Source of the DNA: Planctomycetota bacterium
GTDB taxonomy: Bacteria; Planctomycetota; UBA8108; SXIK01
Direction: 5' to 3'
Assembly (NCBI GenBank): GCA_965223265.1
Contig: OZ244999.1
Span: forward strand, 1,952,001 to 2,016,000
Length of the DNA stretch: 64,000 nt
The translations under genes and the position numbers were made by a program. Within the stretch, counting starts at the first letter, position 1; every line of letters begins with the position of its first letter. Under the pieces are notes generated by a model. The model was given only the letters and a program-made list of their open reading frames with translations, was not told where the DNA came from and did not search any database. This document shows, in pieces, positions 37,422 to 41,061 of the stretch.

Positions 37422-38407
37422 GTGTGTTTGGCATGACAGCGACTTCTCCGTGTTTCGGCATCCCGGGTCGCAGCTGTCGTCGCCGCAAGTCGCTTGCGGT
37501 TCTGGTGGCGCTAGCGATCACCGTCGCTCGAACCGACGCGATGCATGGACAGGAAGGCGGAATCGAGGTTTTCGCCGCGGAGACGCTTTTCGGGCAAGGG
37601 TGGAGACTTTCGGCCAGCCATCTTTACAAACGCAAGGGCAACGTCTTTCGGGGAGACCGGCACCAAAACGACCCTCTGGATCGCCTCTTCGAGGAGCAGC
37701 GCTTCGTTGCTGGCGTCGACTATGGCGTGCTCCCGGCGTTGACCCTTTCCTTGCTCGTCCCCACTGTCTACAAGTCACAGCGGCAACGGGTGAGCGGTGG
37801 TGGGCGAGAGCGTCTGGAATCTTTCGGCCTCGGCGACGTGGCGCTCTTGGGGAAGTATCGCGTGTTCAAGCGCGACTGGGAGCGTGGCGCGTTCCACCTG
37901 GCGGTTATCTCGGGGCTGGAGTTCCCCTCCGGCGACACTGACGCCGACGAGGATGGCGTCCGCTTGCCACCAGCGCTGCAGCCAGGTCTTGGGGCATGGA
38001 ACCCGGTGACGGCGCTTGCAGCGAACCTCGAGCTGGACCTTTTCCGCTTCGATGGCCTCTTCTTTTACAAGATCAACACTGAAGGAGCGCAGGACTTCGA
38101 AGCCGGCGACTTCATTGTTGTCGAGTTTGATGCCCACTATCGCTTCTTGCACACTCAGTACCCCGGGCCGACCGCAAGTGCCAAACTCGGCGTGCAGTGG
38201 CGTCACGAAATGCGCGACGAGTTGGATGGGCATCGCGTTCGTAACTCCGGTGCGGACGTCATCGCTCTGCGTCCGGGCGTGTCGTGGCATCCTTTGCCGC
38301 AAATCGACATCAGTGTCACACTGGACGTTCCGATCTATCGCTATGTCAGAGGCGAACAACTGGTGTTGGACGTGCGGACGTTCTTTGCAGTAGGCTTGCG
38401 ATTTTGA
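37418..38407 (+). CDS. Outer-membrane beta-barrel, 'transporter'/MetA-phenol-degradation-like family
   Basis: GTG overlaps the ALDH stop (alternative ATG 37433); signal peptide; GLGDVALLGKYR, GLEFPSG, QPGLG motifs; amphipathic strands; terminal Phe (VGLRF). Confidence 0.8.
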   Translation: MSVFGMTATSPCFGIPGRSCRRRKSLAVLVALAITVARTDAMHGQEGGIEVFAAETLFGQGWRLSASHLYKRKGNVFRGDRHQNDPLDRLFEEQRFVAGVDYGVLPALTLSLLVPTVYKSQRQRVSGGGRERLESFGLGDVALLGKYRVFKRDWERGAFHLAVISGLEFPSGDTDADEDGVRLPPALQPGLGAWNPVTALAANLELDLFRFDGLFFYKINTEGAQDFEAGDFIVVEFDAHYRFLHTQYPGPTASAKLGVQWRHEMRDELDGHRVRNSGADVIALRPGVSWHPLPQIDISVTLDVPIYRYVRGEQLVLDVRTFFAVGLRF

Positions 38408-38466
38408 GATCTTTGTAAGGTCTGAACGTTGCGCCGTCTATCGAAGGAACCACTCGAGGAGAGAGT

Positions 38467-39027
38467 ATGCTGAAAAGACGCGCAAGTGCCGCGGTTTGGG
38501 CAGCGGTCTATGTTTCCAGCCTCGTTGGCTGCATGACGGCATCCAATGAATTGCCGCCTGGTGTGCGTCCGTTTGCTGAGGTGACGCTTCTCTTCGAGAG
38601 CTGAATCTGAAACGACAAGGCCTTCGGTTTGGAGAAGGCCTTGCGGCGCCAGGCTGGTGCCGACACCGTGACGCTCGACACCCGCAAGGGGACTGCGACT
38701 TTTACGTACAACACGCCGCGCCAGATTGACTTTGGTTCGATTCAGCGCGCGGCTCACACGGCCGCCTACACGATCAAAAGGCTTGAGCTAAGTGTGCTCG
38801 GCCAGTTGACGAGCGCGGCGTGTGCTGCCTGTCAAAAGGATGTGCCGCACTTGAAGGTCGATCAGACGGGGCAACTCCTGGAAATCCGAGGCGACCTCAG
38901 TGGGGTTGCCACCGGCACCCGCGCCCGACTGCTCGGCCGCACCGGGAAATGGGGCCGCGACCGTTTTGGCGCGCTCAGACCGCGGCCACACGTTGTTCTC
39001 GACGTTGTAACCTTGACGGCGGAGTGA
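38467..39027 (+). CDS. Putative selenoprotein: lipoprotein with HMA/MerP-like domain and U-x-U motif (186 aa)
   Basis: GAGGAG RBS; ATG 38467 is in frame with ORF 38629-39027; lipobox LVGC; VTLLFES-TGA(38602)-I-TGA(38608)-NDKAFGLEKALRRQAGADTVTLD; hairpin immediately downstream. Confidence 0.7.
38616..38643 (+). promoter_or_regulatory. Candidate bacterial SECIS element
   Basis: Perfect 10-bp stem CAAGGCCTTC/GAAGGCCTTG, loop GGTTTGGA starting with G, 21 and 15 nt after the two TGA codons. Confidence 0.65.
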
Positions 39028-39129
39028 GGGCGGGCGCCAGGCGGTCGGCGCCTTTGCAGCAGCGAGAGAAGCGGCTCCGCTTCGCCTTTCCATACGGGCG
39101 TTCGCGCATCAGTCCCTTCGTGGTGCGAT

Positions 39130-39591
39130 CTATCGATGCGCTTTGTGACAACCGCGACACGACCGGCCGATCGCTGAGAGCGCCGACTTCGCTGCGGAGT
39201 GCTTGTTAGCGGTCGTCGCGGCCGCAAGCTTCTTGGTATCGGCGGCGTACTCCCGAACGTACTTCGACCAAGAGCCGCTGCTACCTTTCGCCGGCTGCGT
39301 GCGTGCCAGGGCCGTCGAGAGGTGGGCGACAACTGCAGCCTTGGCTCGCACTGCCGCCCACGACTTGTCGTCAGCAGGGCTCTTTGCCAGATCCTTCTTG
39401 AGCTGTTGGACAAGCCCGCCCTTGCCGTTGACCACGATCATAATGTCAGTCGCGGTCAGCGCGCCGCCGCGCTTTCCCTGAGCATCGAGGCTCGGAATCG
39501 TTGTGGATACTCGCCGCGGCGCGACGAGCGCCGCAGCGCTCAGCCCTACTGCAGTAGCTAAGATCCATAGCGCACAGCGACGAGGTGTCAT
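39130..39591 (-). CDS. Periplasmic class II (cytochrome c'-like) c-type cytochrome
   Basis: AAGGAG RBS, signal peptide, helical body, C-terminal SCRGCHKAHR. Confidence 0.85.
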   Translation of the reverse strand: MTPRRCALWILATAVGLSAAALVAPRRVSTTIPSLDAQGKRGGALTATDIMIVVNGKGGLVQQLKKDLAKSPADDKSWAAVRAKAAVVAHLSTALARTQPAKGSSGSWSKYVREYAADTKKLAAATTANKHSAAKSALSAIGRSCRGCHKAHR

Positions 39592-39615: not shown

Positions 39616-41061
39616 TCAGTCACCCTGCTTCGCAGCGCGATCGTTCTTGATCAGCCGCTCGACCGCCTGGTTGAGCTTTTCCGGGGAGAATCCCACGTGA
39701 TGGCGCACGACGCGCCCGCTGCGATCGACGAAGAAGTTGGTCGGGTAGAGAAGGACGCCGTATGTGTTGTCCGCGATCGCACCTCCCATAAGAAGAACTT
39801 TCTGCTTCAGTTTCATCTCGCTGACGAACTTGGCGATGGTTGGGCCAGGTTCGTCCCAACCGTTCACGGCGACAATCACAAGACCTTGGTCACGATACTT
39901 CTCTTGCAGTTTGCTGAGGTAGGGAGCCTCCCTACGACAGGGTCCTCACCCGTAGCCCCAAAAACTCAAGATGGCTGGTTTGTCTTTGGTCAACTCCTTG
40001 AAGCTGACTTCCTTGCCGTCGAGGTCCTTGAGCTTGAAGTCGGGAGCTTGCCGGCCAAGTACTTTAGCGAGCATCTTGCCGGCTTCGGTCGCCTCGAAGA
40101 AGGAGTGGAACGCTTCGAGACGCAGCTCGAGCACGTCAGACAGGATCGCCACCGGCGTCGCCTTCGCCTTGGCTGCGAAGGCGGTGACCGCTGCCTTGAT
40201 TTCCGCGGACGGTGGGCGTTTGTCGAACACTGCTAGGGTGTTATCGAATGCATCGACCACCGAACTCCACGATGGTTTGGTGGCGCCTTTGAGTGCACCG
40301 CCTGTGTCGCGTTTGAGCTCGATCGTTTGCGCCAGGACGATCGTTTGATCGTCGACGGTAACGTCCACGGCGAGCGAGCGCTTAAACGACTCAACCTCAC
40401 CAGTCTCGGGATGCAGTTCGTAGCGGGCGCTGTAACTTTTTAGTTTCGACGGATTCTCCTGCAGCTCGAACTTGCGCGCTTCGCCGTCGCCGTTACCGGC
40501 GTTGAGAGCCCGTTCGATCACACGGCCGCTGGAATCGACGGTCGTAACGAAGGGAAGCTTCAGCGTCGCTGCGTTGAGGACGTTCAGCTCTGCATCGCTC
40601 TCAAGCTGCATGCCCTTCGCGGGCACCTGGAACGCCGGCAAGAGCTCGATGGGAAAGAAGATGTTGAGACCATGTGTCTCCTCACCGAGCTCGTGCGCCA
40701 CCGGGCTCGAATCGTCGGGGGACAGCGAATAGCCGCCCGGCGATGTCTGGAGGCCGAAGTATTCAGTCGTGGCGTACTTTGTGCCCGCCTCATCATCGAT
40801 CAGGCGCGTGATTCGCACTGACGTCGGGGATCGCCCTTCAATCATGACGTGGGCGGCGTAGGGAGAAGACGATGTCTCGTCTCCGATCGTTTGCGACAAC
40901 ACGGTCTTGCCGGAATAAATGGCGACCATTCCAGGCGCGGGGGTGCCAGCGCCTGGTTCGCCCCAGATCGCATCCGGGCACGCGCCGAGAACGACGGCGA
41001 GCAGTCCAAGCCGGCTGAATGCGAGCCAGCGTCCGCCGCGGTGCAAGCAAAGAGGATTCAT
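39616..41061 (-). CDS. Putative selenoprotein: exported TlpA/ResA-like thioredoxin-fold protein, UGPC active site (481 aa)
   Basis: ORFs 39946-41061 and 39616-39879 share one frame. Read-through gives APDFKLKDLDGKEVS...ILSFWGYG-U-GPCRREAPYLSKLQEKYRDQGLVIVAVN...YPTNFFVDRSGRVV. Confidence 0.9.
39919..39935 (-). promoter_or_regulatory. Candidate bacterial SECIS element
   Basis: Minus strand GTAGGGA-GGC-TCCCTAC; G-starting loop 17 nt after the TGA at 39948-39946. Confidence 0.65.

Follow-up and report, generated by a model that had tools for sequence, protein, structure and literature searches.

Paired in-frame UGA codons and a conserved two-hairpin element in a planctomycete lipoprotein family: candidate metal-binding selenoproteins

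Positions 38467 to 39027 of a 64,000-nucleotide stretch of Planctomycetota DNA (contig OZ244999.1; the window, hereafter) hold a predicted lipoprotein gene whose reading frame contains TGA twice before its end, at codons 46 and 48. The gene product is probably an exported, periplasm-facing lipoprotein that binds soft metals through two selenocysteine (Sec, U) residues, U46 and U48; that works with an outer-membrane β-barrel encoded just upstream; and that relies for decoding on a SECIS (selenocysteine insertion sequence) element made of two hairpins, H1 and H2. A preliminary description of the window had proposed a hidden lipoprotein with a U-x-U site in a loop resembling those of HMA metal-binding domains. 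Each of its predictions that could be tested was borne out, and its interpretation is supported. The comparisons described here establish conservation of the TGA codons, interchange of Sec and Cys, presence of the Sec machinery, hairpin covariation, homology to HMA domains, and synteny with the barrel gene.

The frame is open from its ATG to the TGA at 39025-39027, and 2 of its 186 codons are TGA (Table 1). Re-reading the DNA recovered each element listed in the preliminary description: a ribosome-binding site (RBS), the ATG, and an LVGC lipobox, all leading in frame through the TGAs to 39027. Bacterial lipoboxes follow the motif [LVI][ASTVI][GAS]C; here, the lipobox is L19-V20-G21-C22 (38521-38532), preceded by a basic n-region and a hydrophobic stretch. 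Lipobox-like motifs are present also in variant forms of the family. The loop region reads VTLLFES-TGA-ATC-TGA-AAC-GAC-AAG-GCC-TTC. Sequencing error, which the preliminary description had proposed to check with reads across the TGAs, is rejected both by the conservation of these codons and by the assemblies of three runs (X1-X3; two samples, one study; possibly including the source of the window DNA), whose contigs are identical to the window at 38602-38610.

Every Sec-form relative found retains its TGAs, and every UxU orthologue retains both, as had been anticipated for Planctomycetota homologues. A six-frame search detected a homologue in 15 of 60 related genomes, each with two in-frame TGAs. 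Fourteen of these read [S/T/A]-U-I-U-N-D-x-A-F-G, with a signal peptide and lipobox Cys ahead; the fifteenth, from the same family as the window organism, reads GGVT-U-P-I-U (UxxU). Across the phylum, 24 of 400 evenly drawn Planctomycetota genomes contain a homologue at E <= 1e-5: sixteen of the UxU type; four UxxU; and one each with UxUxxU (three TGAs; locus L075), CxxU, a single U, and CxxC. Scanning with a 26-position DNA motif matched 27 genome contigs, nearly all labelled Planctomycetota (the exceptions being one labelled Glaciecola, and one labelled Acutalibacteraceae that lacks the full motif). In metagenomes the same motif matched 46 contigs, yielding 45 full segments that represent 32 distinct sequences; 22 were new, and every one reads UIU. 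Overall, the UxU set comprises 31 rows from genomes and 22 from metagenomes, distributed across families of the phylum.

Could the TGAs be something other than Sec codons? The locus might be a pseudogene; it might be two genes, for a 45-residue lipopeptide and a 132-residue cytoplasmic protein; or UGA might be read as Trp, Cys, or Gly. Translation table 11 indeed divides the locus into two open reading frames (ORFs), one of 45 residues (38467-38604) and one of 132 residues that starts at TTG (38629-39027), and public protein sets contain the downstream piece only. A profile search of 1.84 billion protein representatives gave 295 matches at E <= 1e-3 (116 at E <= 1e-10); among the 150 matches listed, about 136 start no more than four residues from the point just after the second TGA, the truncation by gene callers that had been predicted. 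Only one database member bears a name, "hypothetical protein", and it comes from a Planctomycetota metagenome-assembled genome (MAG); a single-sequence protein search returned nothing beyond the window's own truncated product.

Such readings are nevertheless very improbable. All of the UxU rows described above preserve, in frame, the TGAs, the U-I-U-N-D-x-A-F-G segment, and the signal peptide; relatives have Cys in place of U; and hairpins track the UGA, as described below. A product made from the downstream piece by itself would have no strand 1, no ligands, and no export signal. A pseudogene is rejected on the in-frame conservation of the TGAs, the loop residues, and the signal peptide. The UxU gene and the upstream barrel gene (38405-38407) both stop with TGA, so TGA is not reassigned genome-wide, and that candidate too is rejected.

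The machinery for Sec insertion is complete in the window genome, a single contig of 9.18 Mb, as the preliminary description had required of its reading: tRNA-Sec (70.3 bits, anticodon TCA); SelA (474 bits); the SelB wing domain (68 bits); and SelD (309 bits). SelA is present in 57 of the 60 related genomes, including all 15 in which a homologue was detected.

What kind of protein is this? Full-length relatives without Sec are few, and seven representatives read G-[LM]-[SA]-C-P-F-C-A-[YF]-G-[LV]-E-K. These CxxC forms have MerP/CopZ-like scores and match solved MerP, CopZ, and ATP7 domains, those of MerP and CopZ at E of about 1e-10. Alignment of the UxU family (alignment A1) with the seven by hhalign gave a probability of 99.2% (E 1.4e-19) over 155 columns, spanning both the HMA part and a carboxyl-terminal domain of about 75 residues. 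The UxU protein can thus be placed, indirectly and by profile comparison, in the HMA lineage: its 99.2% match is to CxxC relatives that resemble solved HMA domains. In the hhalign columns U48 corresponds to the first Cys, K51 to the second Cys, and U46 to the Met/Leu position at −2, the same alignment that had been drawn by eye in the preliminary description. The carboxyl-terminal domain has no sequence match in Pfam, NCBIfam, or the Protein Data Bank (PDB), and the UxU profile gave only chance-level matches to archaeal histone among PDB sequences.

Sec and Cys interchange at three columns, one more than the two expected at the outset. Column 48 is C in L080, L076, L082, and the seven CxxC representatives; column 51 is U in UxxU forms and C in CxxC forms; and column 46 is Cys only in P0113 (C-N-C-K-D-C, CxCxxC). 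All three ligand positions are occupied in P0113 and in its Sec counterpart, L075, which reads S-U-T-U-N-D-U-A-V-G with three TGAs (49-126, at a contig end, the gene being cut at its 5' end). A tree of 50 rows, built by maximum likelihood, groups the i/i+3 forms (CxxC, UxxU, and CxxU) in one clade (support 100/97) and the UxU forms in another (96/85), with three-ligand forms between the two; because it lacks a root and contains long branches, the tree does not give the order of events. The UxU clade includes a degenerate member, P0016; its sister group comprises P0108, P0132, and L072, all without ligands.

Planctomycetota contain further Sec-containing HMA lipoproteins (L087, L092, L096, L106, L108, L083, and L082), whose loops read GME-U-[TS]-P-U, GMD-U-AVC, or GMVCNL-U. 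All have the same hairpin pair, and several are accompanied by a distant barrel-gene copy. With two model hits, L108 may contain two such genes.

The second line of evidence is in the RNA. The preliminary description had noted a perfect 10-bp hairpin with a G-starting loop, here H1, and it is present as described (38616-38643): its loop begins 21 nt past the first TGA (TGA1) and 15 nt past the second (TGA2), and the base of its stem lies 11 and 5 nt past, respectively. The accompanying suggestion that one SECIS serves both UGAs was right that the hairpin is real and incomplete in that a second conserved hairpin went unnoticed. This GC-rich structure, H2, abuts H1 with no gap and is common to all Sec forms. 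The fold of the 70-nt stretch, with z = −3.48 and equalled by 1 of 200 shuffled sequences, exceeds chance.

Covariation, which had been expected of the hairpin in relatives, is displayed by H2. A gapless alignment of 78 nt, beginning two codons before position 46, was made from 38 distinct Sec-form sequences. Pairing across these is 91% for H2 and 78% for H1, and six of the eight H2 pairs have changed on both sides: at pair 50/66, for example, 21 sequences have G-C against 13 with A-U, and at pair 56/60 there are 19 with A-U against 11 with G-C. RNAalifold recovers H2 unaided. In several of the H2 changes a synonymous site, for instance base three of codon 65, varies together with the amino acid specified by codon 60. 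H1 has compensatory synonymous changes in L038 (columns 27/42) and L040 (columns 24/45).

Codon usage tells the same story from the protein side. Within the stems, Ala52 is GCC in 25 of 29 cases, Ala58 is GCC in 23 of 25, and Gln62 is CAG in 20 of 20; Arg61 is only CGC or CGT, and Gly64 only GGC or GGT. The spacer codon Asn49 is AAC in 29 of 29. Gly54, in the H1 loop, uses three codons, and Ala37 and Gly75, outside the element, use four each. Synonymous change is therefore suppressed in the stems, whereas codon choice is free in the loop and outside. Synonymous resampling with local codon usage gave expectations of 6.65 of 10 pairs for H1 and 4.62 of 8 for H2, against 8.52 and 7.19 observed; none of 2000 resamples reached either value, a significance overstated by the relatedness of the rows.

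The hairpins also separate Sec genes from Cys genes. Across the phylum, the H2 register forms six to eight of its eight pairs in 9 Sec-form HMA genes and zero to five in 20 Cys-form HMA genes. A covariance model built from the 38 sequences detected (E <= 0.01) six of seven held-out Sec-form loci and none of 20 Cys-form loci. Neither hairpin is present in the CxxC gene L076, whereas L082, a close relative of CxxU type, carries the two. On these sequence comparisons, the hairpins accompany the UGA and not the protein fold. Across the 9.18-Mb genome the covariance model R1 has a single strong match, which makes this a non-repeated element, and Rfam has no match above noise for 38400-39100.

H2 keeps a constant register across subfamilies, and its A-GGC-U apex is the same as that of the hairpin in a neighbouring redoxin selenoprotein gene. 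H1 is less uniform: columns 21-30 pair with 39-48 in UxU forms, and columns 28-35 with 41-48 in UxxU forms, a 3' shift. Its base lies 11 nt past the first UGA in the former and 12 nt past in the latter.

How might two UGAs be read so close together? In the bacterial SECIS (bSECIS) model, the apical loop follows the pattern N1-G-[G/U]-N-N2 (PMC13188914, Fig. 2 legend) and is 3-9 nt long, with a G within its first two positions; the stem has 4-16 bp; the UGA lies 16-37 nt from the apical loop; and the minimum free energy is <= −7.5 kcal/mol (PMC13188914). H1 agrees with this model in every respect for TGA1, at 21 nt; TGA2, at 15 nt, falls outside the range. H2 agrees in loop, stem, and energy, and its apex fits the loop pattern, but its distances from positions 46, 48, and 51 are 47, 41, and 32 nt, which is too far for UGA46 and UGA48.

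In the model that we prefer, SelB and tRNA-Sec would read both UGAs with the aid of the two-hairpin element: H2 would be the SelB-binding hairpin, and folded H1 a collapsible spacer. Folding of H1 would bring the base of H2 beside that of H1, and so to the point where mRNA enters the ribosome, at the moment when the first UGA occupies the A site. Further movement of the ribosome would unzip H1, while H2 would remain within reach for the next UGA. A bolder version, put forward tentatively, holds that this is an undescribed type of bacterial SECIS: two abutting hairpins, in which a single SelB site (H2) serves two or three UGAs spread over 6-15 nt and H1 is the spacer. The same version adds that the protein has a facial Se-Se-carboxylate site (U46, U48, and D50) on an extended strand; in marine Planctomycetes, this site would capture soft metals present in traces at the outer membrane, binding them more tightly than Cys could.

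H1 might instead be the SECIS for both UGAs by itself, with H2 a separate element: a pause or mRNA-stability hairpin; or a second landing pad for SelB, in which case each hairpin would load one SelB and H2 would pre-load the second SelB-Sec-tRNA complex. This is possible, if rather doubtful. The spacing of the H1 base from the first UGA is like the 11 nt of the Escherichia coli element (PMC8659212), the H1 loop begins GG in UxU forms, and both the compensatory changes in L038 and L040 and the excess pairing over resampling argue for H1. The loop G's, however, are dictated by the Gly54 codon and say little; the H1 loops of UxxU forms (CAAGC and UGAAG) fall outside the SECIS loop pattern; and it is H1 that shifts register between subfamilies while H2 stays constant. 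For a UGA at position 51, moreover, H1 would begin no more than 3 nt downstream, and so presumably inside the ribosome, given its usual footprint.

Returning to the protein, the preferred reading is one of metal capture. It would descend from CxxC-type, MerP/CopZ-like HMA lipoproteins that bore the extra carboxyl-terminal domain, the ligand pair having moved from i, i+3 (CxxC and UxxU) to i−2, i (UxU), followed by an invariant Asn-Asp. The two selenolates would bind a soft or borderline metal ion. Invariance of N49 and D50 after both Sec residues suggests a three-ligand site in which U46, U48, and perhaps D50 would share one face of an extended strand. HMA ancestry, an export signal, and a barrel partner together point to metal capture or hand-over at the outer membrane's inner face: the lipoprotein would adjoin the barrel, and would take up or pass on metal, trace or toxic, on its way through that membrane. 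Our inferences here concern Sec insertion, the metal bound, the barrel partnership, and what H1 and H2 each do.

That partnership draws on synteny. A barrel homologue lies directly upstream in 54 of 59 loci (a partly redundant set), including those of UxxU, CxxU, and CxxC forms, and elsewhere in the phylum more distant barrel copies accompany other HMA lipoproteins of both the Sec and the Cys kind. No neighbour besides the barrel is conserved across the loci compared: the cytochrome c'-like, redoxin selenoprotein, aldehyde dehydrogenase, and short-chain dehydrogenase/reductase genes are not conserved beside the UxU gene elsewhere.

The main rival to metal binding is a redox or chalcogen-carrier role, in which the UxU pair would form a redox-active diselenide/selenol centre in an extracytoplasmic oxidoreductase, or in a carrier of S or Se, acting on a substrate that enters through the barrel. 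Predicted bacterial selenoproteins are mostly thought to be redox proteins (PMC13188914, section 7); the only UxU motif found in the print sources consulted is in a rhodanese-related sulfurtransferase (PMC1976440); a TlpA/ResA-like UGPC selenoprotein is encoded about 600 bp downstream on the opposite strand; and the barrel family, PF13557, is tied to small organic molecules. Even so, we consider this role unlikely. The domain is homologous to HMA, and both the classical GMxCxxC metal-binding loop and the barrel partner persist in its nearest full-length relatives; conservation of the downstream redoxin beside the UxU gene does not extend to other loci. Zn/Cd/Pb-type HMA sites use an Asp ligand, which the invariant Asp two residues past U48 recalls.

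Several observations weigh against a Sec-dependent metal-binding protein as pictured here. The window protein itself scores only 18.7 bits (E 0.0023) with the Pfam HMA model PF00403, over residues 56-101 and below the cut-off of 24.8. Sec/Cys support for U46 comes from one sequence, P0113, and the relatives compared include no member of the UxU clade with a CxC of Cys only. Three full-length proteins, P0016 (loop S-G-I-S-S-D-Q), P0108, and P0132, have neither Sec nor Cys in the loop. They are apparent losses of the ligand pair in which, by sequence, the remainder of the protein was kept; such ligand-free members imply that the carboxyl-terminal domain may have a function of its own. The barrel alignment has no conserved C, H, or M column, and the name PF13557 (Phenol_MetA_deg) refers to phenol degradation or aromatic-compound uptake, not to metals; the PF13557 literature likewise gave no link to metals. 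Only the pairing of TGA1 with H1 fits the standard bSECIS spacing, which leaves decoding of the second UGA without an explanation under that model. Finally, the compared genomes are kin rather than independent samples, and the shuffle statistics accordingly overstate significance.

How does the family compare with known systems? With the MerP/CopZ metallochaperones (PF00403; structures 1afi, 1osd, and 1k0v) it shares ancestry, through the CxxC relatives, and a pair of soft ligands placed where strand 1 ends and helix 1 begins. MerP, too, is periplasmic. The window protein differs in that its ligands are Sec rather than Cys; stand at i−2 and i rather than i and i+3, in a loop (E-S-U-I-U-N-D-K) that departs from the GMxCxxC of PF00403; and are followed by Lys at the second Cys position. 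It adds a predicted lipid anchor and the 75-residue carboxyl-terminal domain, and its partner is an outer-membrane barrel rather than MerT or a P-type ATPase.

Selenoproteins of HMA type are already on record. NF041115 (UxxU_metal_bind) has two Sec in its metal-binding loop and is listed as a putative mercuric reductase, UxxU, with two Sec (PMC13188914, Table 1); the same table includes a P-type ATPase with UxxC. NF041115, however, is a small protein of 74 positions with UxxU, whereas the window protein has UxU and 186 residues and gave no match to that model even at E <= 10 (cut-off 95 bits); the UxxU cousins score 23-32 bits. The sole NCBIfam match of the window protein is to NF045683, a MerT/CopZ fusion-like heavy metal transport selenoprotein, at 13.7 bits against a cut-off of 375. 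That protein also has Sec in a CopZ-like module, but with a MerT membrane part that the window protein lacks.

The UxU arrangement in print is a variant of a rhodanese-related sulfurtransferase from the Olavius delta-1 symbiont (PMC1976440), and is unrelated in fold and chemistry. There, as described, UxU is a variant within a one-Sec family; the window family is fixed on UxU. On the RNA side, the E. coli fdhF SECIS and the elements modelled by bSECISearch likewise consist of a hairpin in the coding region just 3' of the UGA. In the window family there are two abutting hairpins, and two UGAs (three in L075) over 6-15 nt.

The preliminary description knew of no family with this motif. That holds for the UxU arrangement and for the lipoprotein family, although not for Sec in an HMA fold (NF041115 and NF045683). 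The family is not in NCBIfam release 20, nor among the 119 selenoprotein families in Table 1 of a 2026 review (PMC13188914). Searches of deep-Sep and BSepDB turned up nothing on HMA, heavy-metal, Planctomycetes, or lipoprotein selenoproteins, and the main text of a planctomycete genome paper (PMC4807772) has no such protein, although its supplementary candidate table S9 might mention the gene. The UxU lipoprotein is a new family among known metal-binding selenoproteins, with an unusual decoding element, and the literature searched contained no description of it.

Together, these results add a family to the bacterial selenoproteome that public data hold only as truncated hypothetical proteins. 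CxxC, CxxU, UxxU, UxUxxU/CxCxxC, and UxU forms, in one scaffold and with one partner, are a natural series for the evolution of metal sites; why and how Sec replaces Cys at such sites, and how a ligand pair migrates, become directly testable. The element is likewise a natural test-bed for the reading of closely spaced UGAs, given that the standard model needs a fixed distance from UGA to hairpin, and this bears on the engineering of proteins with multiple Sec residues. The family, many of whose members come from metagenomes, points to selenium-dependent metal handling at the planctomycete cell envelope.

Table 1. Features of the UxU selenoprotein locus and its upstream gene (window coordinates).
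Feature	Position	Strand	Remarks
Outer-membrane β-barrel gene	37433..38407	+	PF13557 Phenol_MetA_deg, E 4.6e-13; ends FFAVGLRF-TGA; start codon uncertain
Purine-rich RBS-like stretch, GAGGAGAGAG	38456..38465	+	Read from sequence; ends 1 nt 5' of the ATG
UxU selenoprotein gene, complete coding sequence	38467..39027	+	186 codons plus TGA stop; orthologues align along full length
Lipoprotein signal peptide with lipobox LVGC	38467..38532	+	Residues 1-22, read by eye
Candidate lipidated Cys, C22	38530-38532	+	Invariant in 14 of 14 aligned orthologues
HMA-like (ferredoxin-fold-type) domain	38578..38796	+	About residues 38-110; weak Pfam match plus hhalign
First in-frame TGA (predicted Sec46)	38602..38604	+	Extra ligand at −2, Met/Leu position of GMxCxxC; TGA in 29 of 29 UxU genes
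Second in-frame TGA (predicted Sec48)	38608..38610	+	Aligned to first Cys of CxxC; TGA in 29 of 29 UxU genes
Hairpin H1	38616..38643	+	Perfect 10-bp stem; loop GGUUUGGA (38626-38633); free energy −17.3 kcal/mol
Hairpin H2	38644..38662	+	8-bp stem; apex A-GGC-U, loop GGC 38652-38654; free energy −12.5 kcal/mol
Carboxyl-terminal domain, no recognised fold	38797..39024	+	About residues 111-186; common to CxxC relatives (hhalign)
CAAC motif, C119-C122	38821..38832	+	CxxC motif inside the carboxyl-terminal domain
Genuine TGA stop	39025..39027	+	From the sequence

The CAAC motif that had been noted downstream of the loop is C119-C122. This carboxyl-terminal CxxC occurs in 5 of the 14 rows of alignment A1, and is missing in genus g5 and others.

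The Glaciecola-labelled contig (L040, from a gammaproteobacterial bin) carries a complete cassette of barrel and UxU lipoprotein. Its closest neighbour in the tree is L050, a contig identified simply as "bacterium", followed by L041, a Planctomycetota MAG. Its cassette reflects either a binning error or transfer. In two metagenome runs, several contigs from other organisms match only 38581-38665 and stop there, at depths of up to 58; the conserved UIUNDKAFG/hairpin segment seems to break the assembly of co-occurring relatives.

A promoter and terminator scan of the locus gave nothing useful. Visual inspection shows two GC-rich hairpins just 3' of the stop (39033-39056 and 39067-39090), each with a short run of T after it; neither is among the terminator-scan results.

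Between the UxU gene and the redoxin selenoprotein gene lies, on the minus strand, a gene for a small exported cytochrome c'-like protein that ends CRGCHKAHR (39130-39591; PF01322, E 5e-5, below the cut-off). The redoxin gene itself (39616-41061, minus strand) is a 481-codon frame bridged by one TGA, FWGYG-U-GPC, and is likely a second selenoprotein gene. Its product is a ResA/TlpA-like thiol-disulfide oxidoreductase (NF002854, E 3e-26). Table 11 cuts the frame into two ORFs, 39946-41061 and 39616-39879, and a 7-bp hairpin with the A-GGC-U apex lies 10 nt past its TGA.

The window genome has four redoxin-family genes with one in-frame TGA at the UxxC/UxxT position. Those elsewhere in the genome are at 8072102-8072548 (−), 7582879-7583166 (+), and 8063664-8063933 (+), and in that order read GDT-U-PVC, WATW-U-GPC, and VASK-U-GLT. 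The hairpins after the TGAs of these three distant genes are unlike one another.

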